Assembly (NCBI GenBank): GCA_051747585.1
Contig: JBNJGH010000054.1
Location: 1 to 22,170 of the forward strand
DNA from: Candidatus Rifleibacteriota bacterium
Lineage (GTDB): Bacteria; Muiribacteriota; Ozemobacteria; Ozemobacterales; Ozemobacteraceae
Reading direction: 5' to 3'
DNA length: 22,170 bases
Shown: positions 1 to 21,578 of the stretch, piece by piece
Numbering within the stretch: position 1 is the first letter of the stretch
Layout of the letters: the number at the start of each line of letters is the position of its first letter
Program-made: the position numbers and the translations under genes
The notes under the pieces: generated by a model
The model's input: the letters and a program-made list of their open reading frames with translations, nothing else
Databases searched by the model: none
Told to the model about the DNA's origin: nothing

Positions 1-712
1 TCATATAGACGCCAGACCAAAATTTATGTGGTATGAATTTGGTGTGCGCACCAAAGATAACGTCGAACTGATACTTGGAGTAACCTTTTTCTGGCAGATT
101 GAAAATGTTGATAAAATGGTAAGAACTACAGACGACGCCCCCGGCGATATTTGCTCACATGCCCGGAGCATGATTATTCAGTCGGTTTCTAAATCGCCAT
201 TGGAAAAGTTTCTCGATAGCTTTAACGATGTTGTAAGAGCGGCTATCATCAATGAAGATGACCCATTTTATCAGCAACGGGGTGTCAAAATTCACTCAGT
301 GGAAGTTCGTTCGGTGACCTGTAAAGAAGCAAGTACCCAACAGATATTGCAGGAAATAATTCAGGAAACTACCAATCGACTCAATCGTTTGCAAAAACAG
401 CAAAGCGAAAATGAAGTCAGCTTGAATCAGGTCAAAGGAAACATAGATATTGAAAAGCAAAAGGCTGATTTGCTTAAAATAAAAAAAGCAAATGCTTTAA
501 AAGAGGCCGAAAGTGCAGGAGAAGCTGAAGCAGCAAAGGTTGCAACATTTTTCGAAAAACTGGGCGGCTCAGTAAAAGAGAAAGAAAAGTTAACCATCTT
601 TAACACCCTTAAAAAGGTTGAGTACATCGACAAGCTTGGCAACAGCAAAGCCAGCATGTTTTTCACACCGCAGGATGTAGACCTCAGAATAGAAGCAAAG
701 CCCGGACAATAA
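1..712 (+). CDS. SPFH/band-7 (stomatin/flotillin-like) domain protein; 5' end truncated by the window edge, since the frame stays open back to nt 2
   Basis: The ORF is open to the left edge. It has a band-7-like core followed by a long Lys/Glu/Ala-rich coiled-coil tail (KQKADLLKIKKANALKEAESAGEAEAAKV), which is typical of SPFH proteins. Stop TAA at 710-712. Confidence 0.55.
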   Translation, partial: HIDARPKFMWYEFGVRTKDNVELILGVTFFWQIENVDKMVRTTDDAPGDICSHARSMIIQSVSKSPLEKFLDSFNDVVRAAIINEDDPFYQQRGVKIHSVEVRSVTCKEASTQQILQEIIQETTNRLNRLQKQQSENEVSLNQVKGNIDIEKQKADLLKIKKANALKEAESAGEAEAAKVATFFEKLGGSVKEKEKLTIFNTLKKVEYIDKLGNSKASMFFTPQDVDLRIEAKPGQ

Positions 713-724
713 AGCCCGGGCTTT
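711..724. terminator. Short GC hairpin (AAAGC-CCGG-GCTTT) overlapping the stop of the SPFH gene, lying between convergent genes; weak, with only a 3-T run
   Basis: Perfect palindrome aaagcccgggcttt at 711-724, sitting between the + gene (ends 712) and the - gene (ends 750). Confidence 0.3.
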
Positions 725-749
725 GTAGCGAACTAATTAAATTATAAAA

Positions 750-2357
750 TTAGAGCTCTTTCATAAGTGATTCGAGAATTTCCCGCTTTTTATCCTCGTC
801 GTCTGTATGACGCATAAAGTCAGCCAGTTTAAGCATGAGTTCGGCATAAAGATTGTGAGAATCTTTTCCGGTGGCTGCTTCTTTTGGAAGCCCTGCTCCG
901 GTAGCTACAGGTTTGATTTCTTTTGGAGCTTCTTTTTTAACAGGTTCAAGCAGGTCAAAGGTTTGCCCTATTTCAGGAATAACAGTATCAAAGCCCTTCT
1001 GTTCTTTAATCAAACGGGCAAACTCTTCTGATGCTTCTTGATCACCATGAACAACAAACACGTTTCCGTTGACTTTTTCGACTTCTTTTATCCAGTTTAA
1101 CAGACCTTTCTGATCTGCATGCCCTGAATAACCATCGATGCGCTCAATTTTGGCTTCAACCGAAACTTCTTCACCATGAATTCGTACGGTTTTATTGCCT
1201 TCGAAAATATAGCGTCCGAGGGTTCCGTGGGCCTGATAGCCAACAAATATTACCGTATTTTCGCTTCCCCAGAGATTATGCTTCAAATGATGCTTGATAC
1301 GCCCTGCAGTACACATGCCTGAAGCAGATAGCAAAACTATGCCTTTCTGACCATTTAGCGCTTTGGATTCTTCAACAGACTCTGTAAATCTAAAGTCAGG
1401 GTGATCGAATAGACCGCCCATACTTTTCATTACATCGCGAGCATCCTGGTCATAGCATTCCTGATGTTTAACAAAAACTTTGGTAATATTGGTGGCAAGT
1501 GGAGAATCGATAACCACTTTAATACCCGGGATTTCTTTACGCTCTTTGAGAATTAAAATGTCATGCAATAAATCTTGAGTTCTTTCAAGGGCAAATGACG
1601 GGATCAAAATATTTCCGCCTCTTTTAATTGCATTCTGAAAAATTTCTGCCAATTTCTGCAAACGCTCTTCTTTTTCTACAATTTCTCTGGATCGATCGCC
1701 ATAGGTAGATTCTACCATCAGATAATCGGTTTCTTTAAATGAGTCAGGATCTTCAACAATTGGATGGTCATCTTCACCAAGATCACCTGAGAAGACGAGT
1801 TTGCGTTCTTCGCCATTCTCTTTTACAAAAATTTCGATAAATGAAGACCCAAGAACATGACCGGCATTATGAAATTTAACTTTGCATCCTTCTGCAGGTT
1901 CAAAAAATTCATAGCGCTTAACCGGGCTCATAAGAGAAACCGCTTTGTCTGCATCTTCAAAATCATAAATGGGGGCAACCTGCGGCAGTCCCTTTCTTTC
2001 GTTACGGCGATTCTTGTGCATAACATCCATTTCCTGAATATGCGCCGAATCAGGAAGCATGTATTGCAATAAATCTATTGTCGGCTCAGTGGTATAAATT
2101 TTGCCGTTAAAGCCGTGCTTAACCAGCTTGGGCAAAAGTCCCGAATGATCGATATGCGCATGAGTGACAAGAACAAAATCAATACTGGCAGGATCGTAGG
2201 CAAAATCTTTATAGTTATTTTCTCTTAAAGTTTTGTTGCCCTGAAACATACCACAATCAACTAGAAATTTAGTTTTATCAGTTTCAATTAAATAATTCGA
2301 ACCGGTCACACAGCCGGCAGCACCGTGAAATGTAATTTGCATAGCTTTCCTTTCCAA
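750..2357 (-). CDS. MBL-fold metallo-hydrolase of the beta-CASP RNA-metabolising family (RNase J/CPSF-like), with a Lys/Pro-rich C-terminal extension
   Basis: HxHxDH motif (VTHAHIDHSG), then Asp/His beta-CASP motifs (GDLGEDDHP ... HGDQ) and the GYSGHAD motif. 535 aa. The start is 4 nt downstream of the preceding 143-aa ORF's stop, so the two are probably translationally coupled. Confidence 0.8.
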   Translation of the reverse strand: MERKAMQITFHGAAGCVTGSNYLIETDKTKFLVDCGMFQGNKTLRENNYKDFAYDPASIDFVLVTHAHIDHSGLLPKLVKHGFNGKIYTTEPTIDLLQYMLPDSAHIQEMDVMHKNRRNERKGLPQVAPIYDFEDADKAVSLMSPVKRYEFFEPAEGCKVKFHNAGHVLGSSFIEIFVKENGEERKLVFSGDLGEDDHPIVEDPDSFKETDYLMVESTYGDRSREIVEKEERLQKLAEIFQNAIKRGGNILIPSFALERTQDLLHDILILKERKEIPGIKVVIDSPLATNITKVFVKHQECYDQDARDVMKSMGGLFDHPDFRFTESVEESKALNGQKGIVLLSASGMCTAGRIKHHLKHNLWGSENTVIFVGYQAHGTLGRYIFEGNKTVRIHGEEVSVEAKIERIDGYSGHADQKGLLNWIKEVEKVNGNVFVVHGDQEASEEFARLIKEQKGFDTVIPEIGQTFDLLEPVKKEAPKEIKPVATGAGLPKEAATGKDSHNLYAELMLKLADFMRHTDDEDKKREILESLMKEL

Positions 2358-2361
2358 TTAT

Positions 2362-2793
2362 TCAGGAAGATATTTTAACTGAATTGGTTATCGGCAGTTT
2401 TTTTCTTTTAGCATAGGCAAGCAATTTATCTCTTCTAATGCTGTGCTCAGTCTCAAATTCGCCGCCTCGATCAGTTTTATAAGCTACACGAACCATTTTA
2501 CCCCAAGCGTTATGAGTGGTAGTTACCTCTGTGGGTTTACCTTTATCAGGGGCTTCAAAGGTTCTTGGCAAAAAACAAATAAGACCATATTGGCCTGGTC
2601 CGATTAGATAAACATGTGCCTGAAGATTCGGCGGCAATTTCTTATATTCATCGGGAAAAAGTGGAATATAAGTTGCTACCGAACCAAAGTCTCCCTGATC
2701 GATAAGTGCGGCGTAGGGTCGCGAAAATCTTTTAAGACCAAGGGTTTCGAGTATTTTTTCTATAATTTCCGGGGATACTGTTTTTACTGCCAT
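2362..2793 (-). CDS. Hypothetical 143-aa protein with no family recognised by eye
   Basis: Clean ORF with an ATG start. It is tightly coupled to the downstream MBL hydrolase gene (4-nt gap) and lies 70 nt downstream of alr on the same strand. Confidence 0.5.
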   Translation of the reverse strand: MAVKTVSPEIIEKILETLGLKRFSRPYAALIDQGDFGSVATYIPLFPDEYKKLPPNLQAHVYLIGPGQYGLICFLPRTFEAPDKGKPTEVTTTHNAWGKMVRVAYKTDRGGEFETEHSIRRDKLLAYAKRKKLPITNSVKISS

Positions 2794-2863
2794 TGCGCGC
2801 CATTCTATTAGTTAATTAATTGTGATTCAAGATATTTTTTTTATGTTTTGAATTTATACTGCT

Positions 2864-3988
2864 TTAAAAAGGGTCAAAATAACGCTTAACCCTGCTGTTA
2901 ATCTGACAGGTAACTTCATAGGTAATAGTATTTAATTTTTCGGCCCATTCATAAGCGCTTATCTCTTCTTCTTTATCATTTCCAATTAAGGTAACCGTAT
3001 CACCAACCTTGACTTCTGTTTCTTTGCCAAGATTACACATGCTCTGATCCATGCATACCCTGCCAACCACAGGATAAGACTTACCATTAATCAAAACTCT
3101 GCCTGAATTGGAAAAAAGTCGATTGAACCCGTCGGCATAACCAGCCGGAAAAGTTGCTACCCAGGTTTCTTCAGGAGCAATCCAGGTTCTGCCATAGCCA
3201 ATAGATGTACCCTTTTCCACCTTCTTAATAAAAGAAACCCTGGTCTTGAAACTCAAACCTGGCTTCAGATCTATGGTCTGGGGGGTCTCATTGGAAGGGT
3301 AAAACCCGTAAATCATAATTCCGGGGCGCACCATATCAAGCCAACCATCAGAGTGGGCCAGAACTGCTCCGGAATTGGCACAATGAACAAGATCAAATTT
3401 AAAATCGAGCTCTTGTTCTATGCCTTTGACAATTTTTTTAAATCTGGAAATCTGGCGGTCGGTAAATGAAGTATTGGCTTCATCACTTACGGGCAAATGA
3501 GTCATTGCAGCGGTCAATTTTAAATGCGGGCAATTTTTTATTATTTCTCTGGTAAGTTCGGTTGCATTTTCAGGCGCTACTCCGATTCGGCCCATACCGG
3601 TTTCAATTTTTATATGAACATCGACTGTTTTTCCCAGTTCTGCTGCTGTTTTCTCGAGAGTTCTTACATTTTCAAGATCTATAACAGTCAATGTAAGTTC
3701 AGAATTAACCGCTTCTGCCATTTCTTCAGGAAAAACAGGGCTGAACTTAAGAACAGGAAGTTTGATGCCGGCCTGACGCAATTGAATGCCTTCCGGGACT
3801 GTTGCTACTCCAAGCCAGTCGATTCCGATTTTTTCTGCCATTTTGGAAACTTCTACAGCGCCATGCCCATAAGCATTAGCTTTTACCGCAATTAAAATTT
3901 TTCTTTCAGAACCAACAGCTTTTCTTATGTTTTCCAGATTATATCTAATGTTATTAAGATGAACCTGTACATGAGTCTGATAAAGCAT
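2864..3988 (-). CDS. alr: Alanine racemase (PLP-dependent). Start placed at the ATG at 3988 rather than the TTG at 4003.
   Basis: PLP-lysine motif AVKANAYGHG, plus GMGRIG, HCANSGA and RVCMDQ signatures. A strong SD (GAAGGTGAG) lies 6 nt upstream of the ATG at 3986-3988. The orr stop lies immediately upstream (gap 1 nt), so the genes are translationally coupled. Confidence 0.8.
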   Translation of the reverse strand: MLYQTHVQVHLNNIRYNLENIRKAVGSERKILIAVKANAYGHGAVEVSKMAEKIGIDWLGVATVPEGIQLRQAGIKLPVLKFSPVFPEEMAEAVNSELTLTVIDLENVRTLEKTAAELGKTVDVHIKIETGMGRIGVAPENATELTREIIKNCPHLKLTAAMTHLPVSDEANTSFTDRQISRFKKIVKGIEQELDFKFDLVHCANSGAVLAHSDGWLDMVRPGIMIYGFYPSNETPQTIDLKPGLSFKTRVSFIKKVEKGTSIGYGRTWIAPEETWVATFPAGYADGFNRLFSNSGRVLINGKSYPVVGRVCMDQSMCNLGKETEVKVGDTVTLIGNDKEEEISAYEWAEKLNTITYEVTCQINSRVKRYFDPF

Positions 3989-3989
3989 A

Positions 3990-5081
3990 TTACTCACCTT
4001 CAATTACAACTTTATGCACATATTCTGAAGTAGAAAGAGCCAGTAAAGCACCATAATCGGGATAAAAGCCAATTTCATCGCCAACCTGATATTCACACCG
4101 GCTGTCATGCACATCCAGTATCAGATGGTCACTCGAACCACCCAGAACAATAATTCCCTCATCGATTGGGGTTATGCCGTCAACTAATACATCCTGACGG
4201 CCTAAATTGCAAATAACTCTTTTTCTGTTTCCGCGGTCGACAAATTCCTGAGTCTCGCCAAAAGCGTCCTGACCTCGATCTCCGATTGGTAACGAAGGTT
4301 TCATTTCTGCCTCTATTACTTCGCCCACAGTAACAAAGGTATCCTGCCTGGTTTCTGGCCAGGGCGAACGATCTGTAACATTACGACCAAGAATTATAGA
4401 TTCTCCGATTCGATATAAATTAATTTCTTCGGGTAATTTGCCCTCACGCATAATTGGCAAACCGGAACTGTTGCCACCGCAAATTACCGGCAGCTCCAGG
4501 CCGCTATACTCTCTGCACTTTTCGACTGTATCTATAAGCAACTTCATGTTTTCAGCCGAAGGTTTAACACCTCCATAACAGGCAAGATTACAGCCAAGTC
4601 CAACAGCTTCCAGACCTTTGAGCTCACCGGCTTTTTTTACCAGCTCAGGAGCTTTGGCTGGCCAGGTACCCTCTCGCAGATCGCCGACATCAATCATTAT
4701 AATTACTCGGTGGAGCAAATTTTTCTGGCAAGCTGCTTCAGATAAGGCTTCTAAAGTTTTAAAGCTGGAATTCAAACTATAATCTGCAAGTTCGACAACC
4801 TCATGAGCCTTTGAAATCGAGGGTAAGCGCAATAAGAGAAACGGCCCTTTAAACCCGGCCTTTCTAAGTTTTTCGATATTTTCAAGCCTGGAATCTGCCA
4901 GCATATCGGCACCGGCTTCTTCAAGAGCTCGGGCAACCCGGGGGTGAGCAGAGACTACTTTTGTAACGCAGGCAACTTTGATTTTATTTTGATGGCATTG
5001 TTTTATTACAGCTTTTGCGTTTTGTTTGATACGCTCGGGATAAATTTCGAGTCTGGGAGTTTTAAACCTTCTGGTTTGCAT
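3990..5081 (-). CDS. orr: Ornithine racemase-like PLP enzyme (alanine-racemase-fold, YhfX/Orr family). Start is uncertain: ATG at 5081 (preferred, 4 nt after the MutL-like stop), or the alternatives at 5099 or the TTG at 5120.
   Basis: VTKVVSAHPRVARALEEAGADMLADSRLENI, LLLRLP, MIDVGDLREGTWP, GLGCNLACYGG and GGNSSGLP match what I recall of Clostridium sticklandii ornithine racemase. Its position downstream of oraSE and the mutL-like gene mirrors the known ornithine-fermentation cluster. Confidence 0.65.
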   Translation of the reverse strand: MQTRRFKTPRLEIYPERIKQNAKAVIKQCHQNKIKVACVTKVVSAHPRVARALEEAGADMLADSRLENIEKLRKAGFKGPFLLLRLPSISKAHEVVELADYSLNSSFKTLEALSEAACQKNLLHRVIIMIDVGDLREGTWPAKAPELVKKAGELKGLEAVGLGCNLACYGGVKPSAENMKLLIDTVEKCREYSGLELPVICGGNSSGLPIMREGKLPEEINLYRIGESIILGRNVTDRSPWPETRQDTFVTVGEVIEAEMKPSLPIGDRGQDAFGETQEFVDRGNRKRVICNLGRQDVLVDGITPIDEGIIVLGGSSDHLILDVHDSRCEYQVGDEIGFYPDYGALLALSTSEYVHKVVIEGE

Positions 5082-5085
5082 ATCT

Positions 5086-6429
5086 TTAAAGCTGTTCATA
5101 TTGCTTAATCCAATCTTCAAAAGTATTTTTTATGAGTTCAGGGTATTCAATGGCTATAGTTCCCAGGGCGGAAAAAAGGTAATCTCGGTCAAGGAATATT
5201 TGAGCATCGGGTTTAGGCAAAAGAGATCTGGCCGGACCGGTGCAAACCGATTCAAGTATTTTTTCGCCTCCATCTACTCTGGTAAGAGCCCCACCTGTTC
5301 CGATAACCCATTTTACTGCGGATAAATCTTTTCCTCTAATAATTTGTTTTTTACCCGAGGGAGTAAAAAGGTCGCCAATTACTCCGGCATGTCTTTTAAC
5401 GCCGGCTTCAACTGCCTTTTTACATAACCACCTGGTAATTTCTTTTTCCTGTTCGGTTGCAGGCATTGCTTTAATGTCATCTACTCTCTGCATCCAGATT
5501 TCGTCATCTGCCAATTCAAGAACATTACGGGCATTGACAAAAACACCGAGATCACCCTCGACGGTACGTTTACATCTTGGTTCAGGATCTATGAGTTTGT
5601 CGGCAAATTCTGTACTGCCTTCGGTTACAGAATGCACATCAGTAGTAGCACCACCCACATCAACTATCAGGCAATCACCGGCTACCTCGGCAAACAATTC
5701 TGCCCCCTTTAGAACAGCTCCTGGCGTCGGAATAATCTGGCGCTCAGTAAGACTTTCGAGTCTGTGCATACCCGGAGCATGAATAATGTTTTTTGAAAAA
5801 AGTTGCTGCATTTTCTTTCGCAGCGGTTCAACTTCAAGCACGTCGACATCAGGAAAAACATTGGGTGTAATTAAAAGCTCTACACCTGTTTTTTTGAAGA
5901 TATTGGCAACCGCTCGCTTCAAAGCGCTATTACCGGCATAAACAACCGGAACATGCAGGTCAAGCGAAGCAATTTTTATGGCATTCTGTAAAACAACTTC
6001 TTTTGCTCCAAAATCAACTCCACCAGCCAGAACGATCATATTAGGCTGAATTTCTTCTATTTCTTCAAGATCAAATTCGCTTAAATCACCGGCAGTAACC
6101 ATTTTTATTATTGCTCCGGCACCGAGACTGGCCTCTCGTGCCGCTCTGGCAGTCATATTATAAGTTAAACCATGAACCGTAACCCTTAGACCGCCGGCAG
6201 CAGAACTATTTGCAAAAATTTCGGCATTATCGCTGTCAGCACCAGACTTTTGTTCAAGGTCATCAATAGCACTTTTGAGTCCAATTCCAACATTGCCCTG
6301 CTCGACAGTTGTCGAAGCAAACCCCTGAGCTACATGCTTCAGAGAGTTGTGATCTGTTTTAACAAAACCATTTGCTTTTGTAATGGTACTGCCGACTTCA
6401 AGCGTTAAAATTTCTATTTTCATGCTCAT
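5086..6429 (-). CDS. MutL/GlmL-like protein (glutamate mutase component L family; ASKHA-type putative reactivating chaperone for B12-dependent mutases). Start placed at the internal ATG (MSMKIEI...).
   Basis: N-terminal LEVGSTITKA, SSAAGGL, GAGA and VDVGGATTDVHSV motifs are typical of MutL/GlmL. The SD GAAGG lies 8 nt upstream of the ATG at 6429. The longer ORF reaching 6492 has no RBS and overlaps a predicted promoter. Confidence 0.7.
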   Translation of the reverse strand: MSMKIEILTLEVGSTITKANGFVKTDHNSLKHVAQGFASTTVEQGNVGIGLKSAIDDLEQKSGADSDNAEIFANSSAAGGLRVTVHGLTYNMTARAAREASLGAGAIIKMVTAGDLSEFDLEEIEEIQPNMIVLAGGVDFGAKEVVLQNAIKIASLDLHVPVVYAGNSALKRAVANIFKKTGVELLITPNVFPDVDVLEVEPLRKKMQQLFSKNIIHAPGMHRLESLTERQIIPTPGAVLKGAELFAEVAGDCLIVDVGGATTDVHSVTEGSTEFADKLIDPEPRCKRTVEGDLGVFVNARNVLELADDEIWMQRVDDIKAMPATEQEKEITRWLCKKAVEAGVKRHAGVIGDLFTPSGKKQIIRGKDLSAVKWVIGTGGALTRVDGGEKILESVCTGPARSLLPKPDAQIFLDRDYLFSALGTIAIEYPELIKNTFEDWIKQYEQL

Positions 6430-6463
6430 TAATTTACCTTCTGCATAAAAAAATTGGAAAACA

Positions 6464-6492
6464 ATACTACCACAGGCCAACTGCTGCCTCAA
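6464..6492 (-). promoter_or_regulatory. Candidate sigma70 promoter for the mutL-like/orr/alr operon: TTGAGG, 17 nt spacer, TAGTAT (read on the minus strand)
   Basis: The -35 and -10 hexamers were seen directly in the sequence at the correct spacing, ~30 nt upstream of the SD/ATG at 6429. Confidence 0.3.
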
Positions 6493-6507
6493 CTATCTCT
6501 CTGAATA

Positions 6508-6521
6508 GTCAGGGCAATTGC
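6508..6521 (-). promoter_or_regulatory. Copy B of the repeated motif GTCAGGGCAATTGC (core CAGGGCAAT), centred ~85 nt upstream of the mutL-like start codon
   Basis: The same 9-11-mer occurs at 9760-9770 (same orientation, ~94 nt upstream of oraS) and inverted at 7026-7040 (just downstream of the oraE terminator). Confidence 0.35.
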
Positions 6522-6709
6522 ATTAAAATCCTGAACCCCACATTAACTCTTGGCAGACAGTTTCATCTAAATAATCAGCAATTTTCAGTGAACCGTTATA
6601 AGCTGGTTTTCAAAAGTTTTGCTTTTATTTCTTTCTGTCAAATATAGAATTTTCACCACCGAGATCACAGAGTGCACCGAGACAATTTTTTAATCTTTTT
6701 CAGCCTATG

Positions 6710-6775
6710 TTCACAATATTACTCAGCATTCAGAAAAGCATTAATGTTTTTCTGAATGCTGAGTAATATTGTGAA
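6710..6775. repeat. 66-bp near-perfect palindrome: 28-nt arms ttcacaatattactcagcattcagaaaa / ttttctgaatgctgagtaatattgtgaa around a 10-nt spacer gcattaatgt that is itself one mismatch from palindromic
   Basis: Verified base by base. The right arm (6748-6775) is the exact reverse complement of the left arm (6710-6737). Confidence 0.9.
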
Positions 6776-6776
6776 A

Positions 6777-6818
6777 GCCGGACGGTGAAACCGCCGGCTG
6801 ATTGTCCAAAGGACAATC
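6777..6818. other. Two further tandem stem-loops immediately after the palindrome. The first is a GC-rich hairpin GCCGG(a)CGG-tgaaa-CCGCCGGC (6777-6798). The second is GATTGTCC-aaa-GGACAATC (6800-6818).
   Basis: Both stems were checked by direct complementarity. On the minus strand the GC hairpin is followed by TTTCAC. Confidence 0.6.
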
Positions 6819-7025
6819 CACGGCTGAAAAAGATTCTCTGTGATTCTCTGAGGGCTCTGTGGTTATTTTCTTTGTGGCTTTGAGGCTTGGTGTGAGGCAA
6901 ATTCTTTTCTGAAATGATTTGATAGTCGCTGACCAAGAATTGCTATACGCAAGCGTTGTTTTTGCTAACAAAAGCGAGCAAACGTAGATTTATGAAAATG
7001 AAATGTCTGCCCGATTTTTTTTGTG

Positions 7026-7040
7026 CGATTGCCCTGTCAG
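7026..7040 (+). promoter_or_regulatory. Copy A (inverted) of the CAGGGCAAT motif: cgattgccctgtcag on the + strand, which reads CTGACAGGGCAATCG on the minus strand
   Basis: Forms a long-range inverted pair with copy B (6508-6521), flanking ~520 bp of structured non-coding DNA. Confidence 0.3.
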
Positions 7041-7085
7041 AATAAGAAAAAGCTCCGGTGCGTCGCCATCAGCAAGCACCGGAGC
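7041..7085 (-). terminator. Rho-independent terminator of the oraS-oraE transcript: stem GCTCCGGTGC / GCACCGGAGC with a 14-nt loop, followed on the minus strand by TTTTTCTTATT
   Basis: 10-bp perfect GC-rich stem at 7052-7061 / 7076-7085. On the minus strand the U-run follows immediately, 14 nt after the oraE stop (7099-7101). Confidence 0.7.
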
Positions 7086-7098
7086 CCTGTTTGTCAGT

Positions 7099-9303
7099 TT
7101 AGATTTTACCTTTTTTCTTAAGGGTTTTAACGATTGAATCTACCACTTGAATTCCTTTGGAACCCCGACCGAATCCGTCATCCATACCGCATTCCTGCGC
7201 TATTTCTCTGGTAACCTGAGTTCCGCCACAGATCAGAATAATATCATCTCTTATTCCTTTTTCGCGACAAAGTTCATCGAGCTTGCGCATGTTTTTACGA
7301 TGAACATCATTATGGCTGATAATTGTACTGATAAGAATGGCCTTGGAACCGGTTTCGATTGCGGCATCAACCATTTTGCTAACCGGAACGGAAGTGCCGA
7401 GATAATGATATTTAGCACCAAATTTTTCAATTCCGGCGTGTTTAATATCAAGTATTTCGCGTAGTCCGACCGAATGCTCGTCTTCGCCTACGGTTCCAGC
7501 AACAACAGTAAGTCCGGCTTTTTTGATTCCTTCGCGTATTTCGTCTTCTGAAAGCATTTGAACTTTAGGAGGAATTTTAAGATTGGTGCGATCAATCGAG
7601 AAATCAACTTTACCCTTCACCTCAAGGAAAGTGCCTTCTGATGGATGGATAACCTGCGCATTGGTAACTTCGGGTTCGAGCAAACCCATCTTTTTAGCAA
7701 TTTCATTGGCCGCTGCTTTGGCTACTTCGAGCTCTTCGGGCAGGAAAATCTGAACAAGAACGGTTCCATCACCCGCCCATTCTACTTCAGGTTTAATTGA
7801 TTTACCTTTACGGTATTCAATTGTTTTTTCGAGCCTCAAATTGCAGTTGTCAGTCTGGTCAATTTCATCTATGTAATGAATTTTTTCTGGTTTGCACAGA
7901 GTGCAACCATCAATAAGGTCACAAGGCTTTTTAATATTTTCCGGCAGTTTGTTATGACCAAAATTGCTGCAAACCGGTGCCATATAGTCTTTTTCTCGTT
8001 CGACTATGGTATCAATACCTACGCCACCCTTACCGCTTCTTGCGATTCCATCACCGTTTCGTTCAGGATATTTGGCCGAATCAACGAAGAAACCTTTTTC
8101 GACGGCAGCAAAGTATCCGCCGCTTTCCAGCATTTCTTCAAGGAAGCAAATCGCTCTGATCTTGAGGTCTCTTACCATTTCGCCCAAGGGGCCTTCGCGA
8201 TCAATTTTAAGCAGTTGCTTGATGCCATCGAGAGCTACCAGGGTCTGCTTTGCGGTTTCCACCCCTCTGACACTGTTATAATGCCATGGCACGTTTCTAC
8301 CTTCATCTGGAGTTATTGTACTTTGAATATCGGAATGGGTTAGAGCAGTTATAAGGGTATCAATAACATGAGTACGAGTTGCTTCTTCAATATCGGATTC
8401 TATATATCTTGTATTTTGCTGAGCTCGGAATTTAAATTCTTTAAAGAGATCTCTTAAAGCAACAGCATAAGGAAGATCATACCAGAGTTTTGGTGAAGGA
8501 GGAGCACATGGTGGAACAGTTGAAAGCCCGATTTGTGACTTTGGCATTCCTACAGCTACAGAGAAAGCACAGTTGATACCATGCTGAACCATAAGTTCAG
8601 GCATGACTGCCCAGCCTTCGCGTGCGGTAGCATTTGCATTATGGGCACCATCAATCTGAAAAATATGAGCATCTGCCATTATTTTTTTCGCATTTGCCGC
8701 ATCAGTAAATGAGCGATACATGTTTACATTGCGATAAAGAACATTATATTGAGGATCCTGGTGCGCACCGTTTATTCCTTCTTCGGCGAATAGAACAGCA
8801 ACTTCGGGACCTGCTACACCGGAAACATAAGAATGAAAGTTAATCGGGCGCCCGACTTCATCTTCAATCATATCGCAGGCTTTTCTTGAGGCTCTGATCT
8901 GCTTTCTGGTTATTGGAACCCCTCCGACTCCTTCGGGTGTTCCTTCGAGTAAGCCATCGATGTGGCTTTGCCCGGTTGTTCTAATAACCATAATATGGTC
9001 AGCGCCGTGCCATGCGGCCATTCTCATACGACGAATATCATCTTCAAAACGACCTGAAGCTATTTCTGTGCTGATAACAGGTTTAGGCTGAGGATCTATG
9101 TTATTAAAATATTTTGCAGCAGGCAGGGGAACCGAATTTTTTAACGGTTCGCTCATGTCTTTAAAATTGAACTTTTCTACCTTATAACCATCTTTTATAT
9201 GGTTGCGCCAGGTCCAACCTTTGCGCCGAGGATGATAATCCTTTAAATTTGTGAGTATTTCTTCTATATCGAGTTTTTTTTCGGGGTTTAATTTTTCTGT
9301 CAT
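7099..9303 (-). CDS. oraE: D-ornithine 4,5-aminomutase large subunit E, B12- and PLP-dependent (a KamD/KamE-like fusion)
   Basis: 734 aa. The motif run PRRKGWTWRN ... IASGRFEDDIRRMRMAAWHGADHIMVIRTTGQSH ... GAHQDPQYNVLYRN matches what I recall of C. sticklandii OraE. The C-terminal B12-binding Rossmann domain carries a DxHxxG motif (EDEHSVG). SD GAAAGG lies upstream of the ATG at 9303. Confidence 0.9.
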   Translation of the reverse strand: MTEKLNPEKKLDIEEILTNLKDYHPRRKGWTWRNHIKDGYKVEKFNFKDMSEPLKNSVPLPAAKYFNNIDPQPKPVISTEIASGRFEDDIRRMRMAAWHGADHIMVIRTTGQSHIDGLLEGTPEGVGGVPITRKQIRASRKACDMIEDEVGRPINFHSYVSGVAGPEVAVLFAEEGINGAHQDPQYNVLYRNVNMYRSFTDAANAKKIMADAHIFQIDGAHNANATAREGWAVMPELMVQHGINCAFSVAVGMPKSQIGLSTVPPCAPPSPKLWYDLPYAVALRDLFKEFKFRAQQNTRYIESDIEEATRTHVIDTLITALTHSDIQSTITPDEGRNVPWHYNSVRGVETAKQTLVALDGIKQLLKIDREGPLGEMVRDLKIRAICFLEEMLESGGYFAAVEKGFFVDSAKYPERNGDGIARSGKGGVGIDTIVEREKDYMAPVCSNFGHNKLPENIKKPCDLIDGCTLCKPEKIHYIDEIDQTDNCNLRLEKTIEYRKGKSIKPEVEWAGDGTVLVQIFLPEELEVAKAAANEIAKKMGLLEPEVTNAQVIHPSEGTFLEVKGKVDFSIDRTNLKIPPKVQMLSEDEIREGIKKAGLTVVAGTVGEDEHSVGLREILDIKHAGIEKFGAKYHYLGTSVPVSKMVDAAIETGSKAILISTIISHNDVHRKNMRKLDELCREKGIRDDIILICGGTQVTREIAQECGMDDGFGRGSKGIQVVDSIVKTLKKKGKI

Positions 9304-9321
9304 TATGCCTAACCTTTCTAC

Positions 9322-9672
9322 TTAAAAAAGATTGTCGAGAGTTGTTTTGTCTTCGGCGATTTTTTGGGCCGCTTCAGGAATTTTGATGTTGTTTTTCTCT
9401 GAAACGCGCAAAACAACATGCCCGGCACCTTTACCAAGCAATCCGGCTTCCTTGACAACATTTACAACTGCTTGAGAGGTCATACTATCTATGCCCATGC
9501 GCAATAATACAGAACGCTCGATTGAAGGCGAAGTAAAATTACGCCCATAATCAACCATGGGTTCAACAACTTTTTCGCATAAACTCCAGAACTTGTCTTT
9601 AAGCTCATCATTGCTCATTTTTTCGAGTTCTTTACGACGAGCTTCAAACTTTTTAATTCTTTCTTCGCTCAT
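9322..9672 (-). CDS. oraS: D-ornithine 4,5-aminomutase small subunit S
   Basis: 116 aa. SPSIERSVLLRMGIDSMTSQAVVNVVKEAGLLGKGAGH matches the conserved OraS core. It lies 18 nt upstream of oraE, with the SD AAAGGA before its ATG. Confidence 0.85.
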   Translation of the reverse strand: MSEERIKKFEARRKELEKMSNDELKDKFWSLCEKVVEPMVDYGRNFTSPSIERSVLLRMGIDSMTSQAVVNVVKEAGLLGKGAGHVVLRVSEKNNIKIPEAAQKIAEDKTTLDNLF

Positions 9673-9759
9673 ACCAATTCCTTTCGAACTAATAATTTCA
9701 TTTTATGCCAAGACTGTAACTCGTTTTGCCCATTTTTACCACCCTAAATTGTAAAATTT

Positions 9760-9770
9760 TCAGGGCAATT
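9760..9770 (-). promoter_or_regulatory. Copy C of the CAGGGCAAT motif (tcagggcaatt), centred ~94 nt upstream of the oraS start, in an A/T-rich context
   Basis: 11/11 identical to copy B in the same orientation relative to the downstream minus-strand operon. Confidence 0.35.
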
Positions 9771-9788
9771 TTTTAAGTATGGCCAAAG

Positions 9789-10289
9789 TCATGAATTCTT
9801 TCTTTCGGCATTTCGAACATAAATATTGAAGGTAAATGCAGGAGTTGTTGCAAAATTTTCGCTCGATACAAGTTTGAATTGTTCAGAAGAAAATTCCGGA
9901 AAATATTTGTCTCCTTCGTAAGCTTTTTCAATAGTAGAAAGATAAATTCTATCTGCAAAAACCAATGCCTGGTGGTAAACACTTTCGCCGCCGGCTATAA
10001 AAACTTCTTGGGAGAAATTCAATTCATCTGCAATTTTTAAAGCCTGTTGCATGCTTTCAGCGGTTAAAGCTTTTTCAAACATTGCATCTGGCTGACGAGT
10101 CAAAACTATTGTCTTTCTTCCCGGCAGAGCTTTACCAATGCCTTCAAAGGTTTTTCGTCCCATTATAAGAGTTTTATTCATGGTAATTTTTTTGAACAGT
10201 GCAAGTTCTTCGGGTATATGCCAGGGCATTTTACCCCGATTACCAATCAAATTGTTCTTATCTCTGGCCGCTATGATTGAAATAATCAT
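9789..10289 (-). CDS. folA: Dihydrofolate reductase
   Basis: MIISIIAA..NLIGNRGKMPWHIPEELALFKKITMNKTLIMGRKTFEGIG..LPGRKTIVLTR is a textbook DHFR N-terminus. 166 aa. Confidence 0.85.
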   Translation of the reverse strand: MIISIIAARDKNNLIGNRGKMPWHIPEELALFKKITMNKTLIMGRKTFEGIGKALPGRKTIVLTRQPDAMFEKALTAESMQQALKIADELNFSQEVFIAGGESVYHQALVFADRIYLSTIEKAYEGDKYFPEFSSEQFKLVSSENFATTPAFTFNIYVRNAERKNS

Positions 10290-10342
10290 TCTTAATTTTT
10301 TCTCCCGCTTGCTGTTTTTATTCTGAAATGGTATTTTAACGG

Positions 10343-10878: not shown

Positions 10879-11772
10879 ATGTTAAAAAAACAAAATAAAC
10901 TGGCAAGGCTGTTAAAGAACTTTATTTTCAGTGGTCTTGACGAAAACAATACCGACATAGAAACCCTTCGACAAGTTGGGATGCTTAATGCTTTAATTGT
11001 TGTAAGCCTTATAATTCTTTTCCCTTTAAGCATTATCGCTCTAAAGCAACAACTATATCAGCTTTTATTCGTCGAAACACTTGTGTCTATTTCTCTGATT
11101 TCGATTGTCATTTTTATGCGCAAAACCAGCGACTATTGTAAAGTTTCAATTCCCACAGTTGTTATTGCCGGAATCTTTTATGCGTATCTGCTTACTACAG
11201 GAGGGAAAGCCAACACCGGATTCATCTGGATGTTTTCTTATCCATCAATAGCAACCTTTCTTCTCGGAATCAGAAAAGGCATTTTTTTTTCCTTCCTGCT
11301 TTTTATTTACAGCCTGGCTATAATGTTTGCCGAGCAAAATATTGTTCCAACTACTGCAAACTACACATTTAGCTTGAGTGTTAGAATATCTTTTTCTTAC
11401 TTATTGATTTGTCTTTTTGCCTGGGCAGTCGAATCAACCAGAGCAACTGCGCAATTTGAATATCATCAAATAAACGATGAACTACAAGATTCATGTAAAG
11501 AGCTGGAAAAAAGACATCACGCAAAAAAAGAAATTATAACCGAACTACGCGAAGCCATAGTCGAAGCAGAACAATTAAAACGAATTTTGCCCATCTGTTC
11601 CAGTTGTAAAAAAGTTAGAAATGATACAGGCTACTGGGAAAAAGTCGAACGATATTTTAACCAGCATTCCGGAACAAAATTCAGTCACAGTGTTTGCCCG
11701 GACTGTGCAAACATCTATTACAAAGATATTTTAGACGATGAAGAAAACGGCAGTGCCCGAAAGATTGTATGA
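10879..11772 (+). CDS. Membrane sensor-like protein: six predicted TM helices, a coiled-coil linker, and a C-terminal Cys4/His2 (CxxC...H..H...CxxC) zinc-ribbon-like module
   Basis: Six hydrophobic segments in residues ~35-185, the coiled coil ELQDSCKELEKRHHAKKEIITELREAIVEAEQLKR, then ILPICSSCKKVRNDTGYWEKVERYFNQHSGTKFSHSVCPDCANIYY. The stop overlaps the next gene's ATG (ATGA). Confidence 0.7.
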   Translation: MLKKQNKLARLLKNFIFSGLDENNTDIETLRQVGMLNALIVVSLIILFPLSIIALKQQLYQLLFVETLVSISLISIVIFMRKTSDYCKVSIPTVVIAGIFYAYLLTTGGKANTGFIWMFSYPSIATFLLGIRKGIFFSFLLFIYSLAIMFAEQNIVPTTANYTFSLSVRISFSYLLICLFAWAVESTRATAQFEYHQINDELQDSCKELEKRHHAKKEIITELREAIVEAEQLKRILPICSSCKKVRNDTGYWEKVERYFNQHSGTKFSHSVCPDCANIYYKDILDDEENGSARKIV

Positions 11773-12611
11773 AAAATTTCATTAATTTTTTAAAAGGTTT
11801 TCCGGCGCCTGAAGAGGACGATAGATTAAATATCGAGCTCCGGCGAAAAATAACGGTACTGAATCTGTTTTTGCTAATAGGCAGTTTTTTTACCTTTATT
11901 CTCGGCATTATTACATTTAGGAGCGGCAACACTTTCATTACCGCCGTAGATACTCTTGCATTGTTAATCTTCAGCTCGCTTTTTATTTATTTGCGAAACA
12001 ATAGAAACTTTGAACGCTGCGCAACTCTTTCAATTTTTTTTGTCGGACTTTTTTTTGTTTTTCTTTTTGCTACGGGTGGAATAGATAAAACCTCTTTTGT
12101 CTGGGTTTTTCCTTTTCCAATGATTGCAATTTATCTAACCGGAGTTAAAAAAGGAACTTATGCAACTTTAATTATGCTCTTTGCTATGATTATTGTATTT
12201 CTTACCGGTTCCAGCATACCCCAGTTTGCAAATTATGAATTTAATGTCAAAATTCGTACTATTCCAGCATTTATTTTAATAACCCTGTTTTCTTTTACGA
12301 TTGAAAAAATGACTTTGCTTGTCAGTAATAAACTTCTAAGCGCAAGAAAGTTACGAGAGAAAAATTTACACAAGTTAAAACAGATGGACGAAGAGAACGA
12401 AAAGCTTATAAAAGAACTTGAAAGCAAGCTTGGTGAAGTAAGAAGTTTGCAAACTATTTTACCAATTTGCTCAATTTGCAAAAAAATTAGAAACGATGAT
12501 GGCTATTGGGAAAAAGTAGAAAAATATTTTCATCAGCATTCGGGCACCGTTTTCAGCACCAGTCTTTGCCCTGAATGTGAAAAAAAACCTTCTAAAAAAC
12601 CCGACAATTAA
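11769..12611 (+). CDS. Paralogue of the preceding gene, with the same architecture (6 TM, coiled coil, C-terminal Cys4/His2 module)
   Basis: C-terminus ILPICSICKKIRNDDGYWEKVEKYFHQHSGTVFSTSLCPECEKK is near-identical to the upstream paralogue. The membrane domain is divergent but colinear (TGG..GF.W.F..P). Confidence 0.7.
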   Translation: MKNFINFLKGFPAPEEDDRLNIELRRKITVLNLFLLIGSFFTFILGIITFRSGNTFITAVDTLALLIFSSLFIYLRNNRNFERCATLSIFFVGLFFVFLFATGGIDKTSFVWVFPFPMIAIYLTGVKKGTYATLIMLFAMIIVFLTGSSIPQFANYEFNVKIRTIPAFILITLFSFTIEKMTLLVSNKLLSARKLREKNLHKLKQMDEENEKLIKELESKLGEVRSLQTILPICSICKKIRNDDGYWEKVEKYFHQHSGTVFSTSLCPECEKKPSKKPDN

Positions 12612-18300: not shown

Positions 18301-18821
18301 TCTGAAAAGAAATTGGACCAGTCGAATTGATTGTTTTCAGGTGGTCTTGGCGGGGTTGGCGGTGATTTATGGGCAGAAGCAGCAGGCTTGGAAACTTTTT
18401 CAGGTTGTTCATCTAGATGCTTTGCTTCAGGCTCGTCAGGCTGTTTGGCCTGTTTTTCGGCAGACTTGCGTTTAATACTCTCTGCCAGCCATTCATATTC
18501 TTCTTCTTTTGTTACTCCTGTTTTTTGTTCGTCGATAACCTTTTCGGACTCTTCTTTATTAACCGGCTCGTCAGAAAAAGAAAGTTCAGAAAAATCAGCT
18601 ACTTCATCGCTTTGCTTTTCTGTCTTTTTATCTGGTTGAGATTGTGGTTCAGTTTGTTCATATTTATCAAGCCTCTTTTTAAGTATATCCAATCGATCTT
18701 TAAGAAGCTTGACCTGAAACTGAAGGGTTTCTGTAATTTCTTTGTTTTGCTCTTTTAATCTTTTGACGCTCGACCAAAGAGCTGCAAGCAAAATCAGTAT
18801 TAATAAAACCAGAATTTCCAT
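15330..18821 (-). CDS. DUF2339-like giant polytopic membrane protein (1163 aa): N-terminal TM, coiled coil, acidic/Lys-rich and Pro-rich linker, then ~25-30 TM helices
   Basis: The architecture was read from the translation: MEILVLLILILLAALW, then LQFQVKLLKDRLDILKKRLDKYEQ, then PPTPPRPP, then a continuous run of hydrophobic segments to the C-terminus. A strong SD AAGAGGA lies 7 nt before the ATG at 18821. It pairs with a DUF3999-like gene, as in the known DUF2339/DUF3999 gene pair. Confidence 0.7.
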   Translation of the reverse strand: MEILVLLILILLAALWSSVKRLKEQNKEITETLQFQVKLLKDRLDILKKRLDKYEQTEPQSQPDKKTEKQSDEVADFSELSFSDEPVNKEESEKVIDEQKTGVTKEEEYEWLAESIKRKSAEKQAKQPDEPEAKHLDEQPEKVSKPAASAHKSPPTPPRPPENNQFDWSNFFSEIDWERFTGTQLFAWLGGLALFVGAGFFVKYSIDNNLISPIMRLVVAAIIGVGLIGASFVFDRKRYNILRQTFSAGGIGVLYSVFFAATLYYEYLAKMPGFAALVVVSVAALSLALFHRGVSIAFLGALGAYLTPLLVNTGQGNILTLFIYLVIVNLGLYQVIKRLKSGGLLLFSSLGTMVTLALVAMFSRPSPITSHIAITFAAHLALYSIYFLKLEFNYSTNRLAAWAVRLSTFAMPFAAFVLAIYRTGPSPLLLIVATVAALVVLAYRIRFFFEDVIPLSVFAFLVTACWVFFRLNPQISSWAYLLFFAYGIAGGLGPVLLVHKYGLNQQILKWFKIFPSALALLSLMALLINPDTAFLFWPMTIGIQLMGIALSLVFSAFAPLFVLTLILVFSAIIFISKASVITFGLAFYAFILMAGLAICIVTFIFLRNAAAIAQKLNFETPIKENKNNLSAINEWAAASPIMGMFFILAAAFFKSQPLNPNPGMVTMFCFLVIAQTLARRLNYGYLGIASLLSAVLAQAFWVLRPDLLLSHHFTALLWSIAFFVIALIIPFVAFKNFEKYKKSWMGWPVFELLQAVFIVYAADHIWARSISGLIPLILALVKIPVVLILLRQLEKNTARNSILAFHGGAMLFYVSAVPALMLEAGWLGLVFVFEATALLWLNRRIEHPGLRYVASVLSPIGIYLIISYFPQLKEAGGIKVLNPVVLSALAGSISCVLAVKLAGYPDEKPCSWFNIVKYFKWIAFGFTFYFFNVLAVDIFSDVKHNVSLAKTGVWFVYGLMMHKWPKKLDNSYRLAGLILIFIGILASVLFPFRYAAEFGKMAPLFNQVSALYLLITFITLWLLGRKKVAEEWPLYSINEIPFWSVTLALLSFAYLNIEIASFFGSKGSSFSLLTHGRFAQQLSYSLGWLFYAIALLGAGIRWNAVRARQAALVLIIVTSVKIFLKDLWSLGQLYRVASFIGLAVILMLVSYLYQRFLSNMKEK

Positions 18822-21076: not shown

Positions 21077-21346
21077 TTAATAGCGAGGCCTTCTTGGTCT
21101 GTCAACCCTTGGTTTCGCTTCGTTAACTTTGATGGCTCGACCACTGAATTCTTTACCGTTAAGCTGGCTCATTGCTTCTTGAGCATCTTCATCAGATGCC
21201 ATTTCAACAAAGCCAAAGCCTTTAGAACGGTTAGTGTCACGTTCAATGATCACATTTGCACTGAGAACTTCACCATAAGCGGTGAACATTTCTTCGAGTT
21301 CAGCGTCACGAACACTGTAAGGGAGGTTACCAACATAGAGTTTCAT
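21077..21346 (-). CDS. RRM-domain RNA-binding protein. Start placed at the ATG at 21346 (MKLYVGNLPY...), giving 89 aa, with a Gly/Arg/Pro-rich C-terminal tail.
   Basis: RNP2 (KLYVGNL) and RNP1 (KGFGFVEM) motifs. The SD AGGAGA lies 8 nt upstream of the ATG at 21346. The longer ORF reaching 21385 has no RBS. Confidence 0.8.
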   Translation of the reverse strand: MKLYVGNLPYSVRDAELEEMFTAYGEVLSANVIIERDTNRSKGFGFVEMASDEDAQEAMSQLNGKEFSGRAIKVNEAKPRVDRPRRPRY

Positions 21347-21578
21347 ACCAACATTCTCCTGGAATATAATCGCACACTTACTCACTATATTCCGGGGGAA
21401 TATCGTTCATAAATTGCGTCAGTCTGAATAATATCATATTTTTTAAAAGCAAACAACTTTTTTGAAAAAAAAAATTTCTCTTTCTCATCCCTGCTATGAG
21501 CGTCTTATGAGCAAGAACCTTTGCCGTTATTCACTCTTATATTTTCTATTTTAAATAATATTAAAACCAGTAATTTCT

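Follow-up and report, generated by a model that had tools for sequence, protein, structure and literature searches.

The window analysed here is an entire contig of 22,170 bp from a Candidatus Rifleibacteriota metagenome bin. Its minus strand carries oraS (9322–9672), oraE (7099–9303) and a gene for a MutL-fold protein, along with two racemase-type genes, a gene for a 143-aa protein and one for a beta-CASP nuclease. The MutL-fold protein is nearest to the NCBIfam model "GlmL-related ornithine degradation protein" (548 bits, model cut-off 600) and is called GlmL-like below. Its gene starts at ATG 6427–6429, following a GAAGG ribosome-binding site, rather than at TTG 6492, and the spacer between oraE and the glmL-like gene therefore spans 6430–7098 (669 bp). 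A mechanical call of the open reading frame begins at TTG 6492, which in fact forms the front half of TTGAGG, a conserved promoter-like hexamer. The preliminary description correctly placed a long palindrome between oraE and the mutL-like gene, where it lies between two host signals:

6464–6492, minus strand: TTGAGG-17 nt-TAGTAT, a promoter-like site of the host, ahead of the glmL-like gene and 7 bp past the target-site duplication described below
6710–6775, no strand assigned: the palindrome, apical hairpin (H1) of a larger fold (repeat search, folding, simulations)
7041–7088, minus strand: intrinsic-terminator-like hairpin with T-tract after oraE (−28.5 kcal/mol, z −5.8; kept in the relatives L006 and L013)

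Each of the two promoter-like hexamers has the same sequence in the window, L006 and L013, and the spacer separating them differs. The site scores below the threshold of our consensus scan, and we infer from the sequence that it may serve as the promoter of the glmL-like gene. The same scan found no promoter-like site on the plus strand around the inserted segment described below. The oraE terminator hairpin is host sequence as well and lies just outside that segment.

Several other features of the window are recorded here as observations in their own right. Tandem paralogous genes for MASE6/MASE11 membrane sensors (10879–11772 and 11769–12611) overlap by 4 nt, share a 128-nt stretch at 76% identity (11584–11711 versus 12456–12583) and are among the genes most diverged from the sister species (75–80% amino acid identity). 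Near the contig end, a eukaryote-type RNA recognition motif (RRM_1, E = 2e-24) is found in a 102-aa protein encoded by positions 21077–21385 on the minus strand.

The palindrome itself is as regular as the preliminary description had it: positions 6710–6737 are perfectly complementary to 6748–6775, forming a 28-bp stem, and the 10-nt centre, GCATTAATGT, is one change short of palindromic. Taken whole, the dyad consists of 33-nt arms that are 97% complementary in the repeat search, with no spacer and a single mismatch (G6738/T6747). No other perfect stem in the window reaches these 28 bp; when the window was simulated 200 times with a first-order Markov model, the longest one had a mean length of 9.6 bp and a maximum of 15 bp. 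A very stable RNA hairpin of about 28 bp had been proposed, and folding bears this out (−45.7 kcal/mol on the plus strand and −41.4 kcal/mol on the minus strand, z ~ −13 on both), with the plus strand stronger because the sole arm mismatch is a G:U pair there and a C.A mismatch on the minus strand, the strand of the flanking genes. The corresponding DNA hairpin has a predicted energy of −30.5 kcal/mol. AT-rich in composition, the palindrome runs into AGCCGG on the plus strand and into CATAGG on the minus strand. A terminator scan of 6300–7250 found no short GC-rich stem with a direct U-tract.

The palindrome is the tip of a nested fold in which a 14-bp perfect stem encloses three hairpins, all within 6510–7036. 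The parts of this fold, apart from the palindrome, are as follows:

6657–6681, plus strand: three direct CACNGAG repeats with 9-nt spacing, left side of the outer stem (motif scan)
6692–6705, no strand assigned: left arm of the 14-bp stem, AATCTTTTTCAGCC (repeat search, folding)
6776–6799, no strand assigned: hairpin H2 (AGCCGG-A-CGGT GAA ACCG CCGGCT), 10 bp with one bulge (folding)
6800–6818, no strand assigned: hairpin H3 (GATTGTCC AAA GGACAATC), 8 bp (folding)
6822–6835, no strand assigned: right arm of the 14-bp stem, GGCTGAAAAAGATT (repeat search, folding)
6836–6861, minus strand: inverted CACNGAG counterpart, right side of the outer stem (CACAGAG at 6836–6842 and 6855–6861, variant CTCAGAG at 6846–6852)
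6900–6911, plus strand: fifth, unpaired copy of the 12-mer AATNYTTTTCWG (motif scan)

An imperfect outer stem, composed of CACNGAG repeats that are direct on the left and inverted on the right, extends the pairing to ~6652–6870, and the nested fold is very stable on both strands (z ~ −14 to −16). Five of the 13 CACNGAG matches in the window fall within the 205 bp from 6657 to 6861. All five window copies of the 12-mer lie in 6692–6911, against 0.31 expected for a pattern that was chosen post hoc; four of these copies make up the arms of the 14-bp stem and of the centre of the palindrome. On a larger scale, the whole of 6510–7036 folds end to end into a single rod with the palindrome at its tip; its arms are only ~80% alike, with many indels, and its core is nearly perfect. 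The 66 bp can thus no longer be treated as a self-contained site, given the enclosing 14-bp stem, the two neighbouring hairpins and segment ends that lie ~200 bp away on each side. The idea of a second, nested MITE bounded by the 14-bp stem or by the palindrome was rejected, as neither has a flanking direct repeat.

Comparison with relatives bears on the origin of the segment. The GlmL-like protein falls in a 90% cluster with three other members, one of which (P0121, 94% identical) occurs on many sister-species contigs that keep the same gene order over >16 kb. In a blastn comparison with the syntenic sister-species contig L006, window positions 1–6495 and 7045–10295 align at ~86% nucleotide identity, and window 6496–7044 faces only 11 bp. 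The spacer between oraE and the glmL-like gene measures 129 bp in L006–L012, L013 and L015, against 669 bp in the window. L015 is a strain variant, and L013 represents an independent third lineage, also with 94% GlmL-like identity; a more distant relative, L002, has a 150-bp spacer. The segment is absent from the orthologous position in all of these (L006–L012, L013, L015 and L002). The preliminary description had named absence or variability in close relatives as an argument for a neutral remnant, and absence is what we found.

The ends of the segment were set from its inverted repeats and the duplication around it:

6510–7036, no strand assigned: the whole insertion, 527 bp, non-coding, MITE-like and non-autonomous (blastn gap against L006, empty sites)
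6510–6523, plus strand: left terminal inverted repeat, CAGGGCAATTGCAT (12/14 against the reverse complement of 7023–7036)
7023–7036, minus strand: right terminal inverted repeat, CAGGGCAATCGCAC as read on the minus strand (12/14 match to the left repeat)
6500–6509, no strand assigned: target-site duplication on the glmL-like side, TCTGAATAGT on the plus strand and ACTATTCAGA on the minus strand
7037–7046, no strand assigned: target-site duplication on the oraE side, TCAGAATAAG on the plus strand and CTTATTCTGA on the minus strand

Both terminal inverted repeats start CAGGGCAAT, exactly at the segment boundaries. The two duplication copies are imperfect, matching at 7 of 10 positions; against the 10-mer of the L013 empty site, ACTATTTTGA, the copy at 6500–6509 matches at 8/10 and the copy at 7037–7046 at 7/10, and both window copies have a derived C at position 7. 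L006, L013 and L015 each have a single copy of this 10-mer, whereas the window has two. Read on the minus strand, the window junctions are GCACCGGAGCTTTTT-CTTATTCTGA-CAGGGCAATCGCAC ... ATGCAATTGCCCTG-ACTATTCAGA-GAGATAGTTGAGG, and the relatives' empty site is GCACCGGAGCTTTT-ACTATTTT(A/G)A-(TCTC/TAGC)TAGTTGAGG; by lineage, the empty sites read GAGCTTTT-ACTATTTTAA/ACTATTTTGA-...TAGTTGAGG. Colinearity with the relatives returns when the element and one of the two 10-mers are taken out, and the difference in spacer length is accounted for (527 + 10 + 3 nt of small indels = 540). The gap in the alignment, the single versus double 10-mer and the spacers of 129 versus 669 bp together indicate a transposon insertion with target-site duplication. 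Among the Rifleibacteriota sequences scanned (the 22-kb window and ~190 kb of relatives' loci), this is the only CAGGG...CCCTG pair with at least 12/14 matching ends; the same scan returned one chance pair in an E. coli control locus.

We searched widely for further copies, coding content and known RNA families. Neither the 22-kb contig nor ~190 kb of loci from relatives yielded a second copy of the element, and an exact look-up of five window proteins found no same-species contig on record; most window proteins are singletons in their own 90% clusters. Exact words from the palindrome arms (a 22-mer and a 20-mer) had no matches in either the genome or the viral collection. A sole metagenome match, on a TARA contig (L005), lies in coding sequence that has no palindrome and was dismissed as chance. 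The viral collection also held no match to the end-plus-subterminal pattern of the element or to hairpin H2, and a blastn search of the spacer against phages and plasmids found nothing. The preliminary description saw no convincing open reading frame here, and this judgement holds: those overlapping the palindrome have TTG starts only (68 and 76 aa) and no Pfam match, and the consecutive NCBI accessions of GlmL and OraE mean that no coding sequence is annotated between them. Six-frame pieces of the element joined as one query likewise had no match at E ≤ 10 among 5.8 billion proteins. An Rfam scan of the whole window gave no matches at the gathering threshold; a permissive scan of 6400–7200 gave only microRNA-type hairpins far below cut-off, the best being a plant microRNA hairpin at 34.5 bits (cut-off 71).

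Other sequences at these loci resemble parts of the element or vary in the same spacer. Solo copies of TCAGGGCAAT at window position 9760 and at L006 position 6635 were set aside as chance, having either no insertion relative to the other genome or no inverted partner. Window 9760–9771, between oraS and the gene for DHFR, reads TCAGGGCAATTT, of which the opening 11 bases, TCAGGGCAATT, correspond to the left end of the element together with the base before it; with no inverted partner and no conservation in L006, this likeness is probably also chance. Upstream of the DHFR gene, L006 6577–6674 and window 10296–10306 form a reciprocal indel in which the sister species has ~90 extra bases that are bounded by a 10-bp perfect inverted repeat (TCAGCAATTC ... 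GAATTGCTGA) and contain TCAGGGCAAT, possibly a further small insertion of mobile or palindromic type. For the sister species, the independent short-read assemblies L007 and L008 both break at locus position 18484, directly after a MazE/PemK toxin–antitoxin pair that is followed in L006 by a 410-aa open reading frame with no family match. There may be a repeat at this point; no inverted-repeat ends or transposase similarity were seen there. In two more distant relatives (~82% GlmL-like identity), the spacer between oraE and the glmL-like gene holds a DUF6901 gene (221–242 aa, Pfam E = 1e-63; L001 2941–3606, L004 5186–5914), which is missing from the window, the sister lineages and L002. This pattern suggests repeated loss of an accessory gene of the ornithine aminomutase cluster. 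The window spacer was also considered as a decayed DUF6901 gene and rejected, as tblastn of DUF6901 against it gave nothing better than E = 1.6.

We conclude, with a probability of about 0.75, that a non-coding transposable element of 527 bp was inserted in the spacer between oraE and the GlmL-like gene and that the palindrome forms its central hairpin. Because this insertion is absent from the closest relatives, the palindrome is most probably a relic of a transposon rather than a site that regulates the genes of ornithine fermentation. Of the three roles first proposed for it, that of a mobile-element remnant stands, since the segment has inverted repeats and a 10-bp duplication and is missing at this site in the closest relatives; a locus-specific RNA attenuator or processing site and a DNA operator for these genes are disfavoured by the same absence. 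Together with the 14-bp stem and the two small hairpins, the palindrome would make up the internal fold-back of the element. Since the element sits between transcription units, its presence would be tolerated, and landing between the oraE terminator and the next promoter-like site would have disrupted nothing. The element is probably little transcribed: it follows the oraE terminator and precedes the promoter-like site, so minus-strand transcription of the palindrome needs read-through, which is probably the only route by which the element is transcribed. Were read-through to occur, the 28-bp perfect RNA helix would be long enough to serve as an RNase III substrate, presumably as a by-product and not a designed function.

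One observation is not predicted by a purely neutral relic: the core is better kept than the duplication, with one non-Watson–Crick pair in 65 across four core helices against three mismatches in 10 (Fisher p = 0.007). The nearly perfect core, a 14-bp stem around hairpins of 31, 10 and 8 bp flanked by inverted CACNGAG arrays, might accordingly be functional cargo of the mobile element, kept by selection while the arms and the duplication decayed and acting either as a ~210-nt structured plus-strand RNA or as a docking platform for protein at multiple sites; we consider this unlikely. An RNA role, which we hold to be just as doubtful, would make the folded core (~6652–6870 or 6692–6835) a functional structured RNA carried by, or captured from, a mobile element, in the form of a plus-strand small RNA antisense to the operon or of a minus-strand element for processing or stability of read-through transcripts. 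The extreme stability of the fold on both strands and the good preservation of the core hairpins relative to the duplication are consistent with such a role, as is a plus-strand bias: transition mismatches between the arms form G:U pairs 10 times on the plus strand and once on the minus strand (binomial p = 0.012), the plus-strand fold of the element is 23 kcal/mol more stable, and TTATTTTCTTT follows the outer stem on the plus strand only. However, the G:U bias falls to 5–7 versus 1 when restricted to securely aligned helices (p = 0.07–0.2, not significant), and no promoter-like site was found on the plus strand. Nor does any Rfam family match above the gathering threshold, and microRNA-type hairpins below it arise from any long stem. 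The element is, moreover, absent in all relatives, and the host pathway can therefore do without it.

A perfect dyad with an AT-rich centre could also be a DNA site, either an operator bound by a dimeric regulator of the ornithine operon or a cruciform with a local role, and the five copies of the 12-mer in the element and the inverted CACNGAG arrays flanking the core, whose 9–10 nt spacing fits protein on one helix face, are compatible with this. We nonetheless regard it as very unlikely: the site is missing from the orthologous spacer of every relative examined, the palindrome lies upstream of the conserved promoter-like site and not over it, no regulator gene adjoins it, and the motifs were defined post hoc, with four of the five 12-mers being the arms of two stems. 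That only a single genome carries the segment might instead mean that it is ancestral and the relatives have lost it, or that it is an artefact from the assembly of the metagenome bin. Two independent close lineages and the more distant L002 lack it, however, and a loss so exact, with one 10-mer left next to inverted-repeat ends, marks an insertion rather than a random deletion. The segment is also internal to the contig with unique sequence on both sides, and the palindrome is shorter than common assembler k-mers, all of which makes deletion or artefact highly improbable. Retron RNAs combine an a1/a2 pairing, small msr hairpins, a long msd hairpin and a G right after a1, a scheme that the minus-strand layout of 6835–6692 fits, with its 14-bp a1/a2, two small hairpins, one long hairpin and G after a1. 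As no open reading frame in the contig encodes a reverse transcriptase (RVT domain), the next gene downstream being the GlmL-like one, and Rfam gave no match, the reading of the core as an orphan retron-type non-coding RNA is close to refuted.

A transposable element thus remains our preferred reading of the segment, and the insertion itself is much more secure than the family to which we would assign it. ISAs1 elements have terminal repeats of 14–22 bp that start with CAGGG and a 10-bp direct repeat (PMC11946415), and ISArsp11 of this family has CAGGGCTGATGCAAAGTCG ends with a 10-bp repeat (PMC6305408). Read directly from sequence, the YhhI element of E. coli K-12 is 1291 bp long with ends CAGGGAAAGATCATC / CAGGGCAAGATTACG, and its protein has the Pfam domains DDE_Tnp_1_assoc and DDE_Tnp_1. 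Like these members of the family (E. coli H-repeat/YhhI, ISArsp11), the element described here has inverted repeats that start with CAGGG, at a length within the ISAs1 range, and a 10-bp target duplication, shown against the empty site and within the 8–10 bp known for the family; it shares its first 8 bases, CAGGGCAA, with the right end of YhhI. On the basis of CAGGG-start ends and 8–10 bp duplications, we suggest that an ISAs1-family DDE transposase may have mobilised the element in trans. We place the ISAs1 link, which draws on 5–9 terminal bases and the duplication length, at about even odds. A tblastn search with E. coli YhhI found no ISAs1 transposase, with matching ends or otherwise, in the element or in any of the loci compared. 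Unlike ISAs1 elements of 1.2–1.5 kb, the element is 527 bp long and has no transposase gene or remnant; it is therefore non-autonomous (MITE-like) and not an autonomous IS. Its large internal fold-back is not reported for ISAs1 elements in the literature examined, and of the nine papers in the literature searched that mention ISAs1 together with MITEs, none names ISAs1 in its title or abstract. On sequence grounds, the segment is best described as a non-autonomous MITE-like element with ISAs1-type ends.

Mobile elements of Candidatus Rifleibacteriota are essentially undescribed, and the present case documents an ISAs1-type non-autonomous insertion in this group with empty-site controls. It also serves as a correction: a palindrome as striking as this one, next to the genes of B12-dependent ornithine aminomutase, could be taken for an operator or something like a riboswitch, when it is most likely a passenger insertion. 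The well-kept core will deserve attention if the full genome has more copies.

Among known systems, intrinsic terminators and REP-type palindromes likewise place a stable intergenic stem between the convergent signals of two genes, but their stems measure 5–14 bp against 28–31 bp here. Unlike an intrinsic terminator, the palindrome has no U-tract directly after it on either strand, and the actual oraE terminator is the separate conserved hairpin listed above. Other parallels are the hairpin MITEs of bacteria, which include the Correia elements of Neisseria, ERIC/IRU of enterobacteria and RUP/BOX of pneumococci. What defines these families is a copy number of tens to hundreds per genome, whereas the element is known from one copy; multi-copy status defines a MITE family, and on this count its membership in one is unproven. 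Compared with them, it also has arms that are only ~80% alike around a nearly perfect core. In its overall design the element corresponds to them: it is small, non-coding and intergenic, has terminal inverted repeats and a target duplication at its borders, and as either DNA or RNA can fold into a long, stable hairpin.
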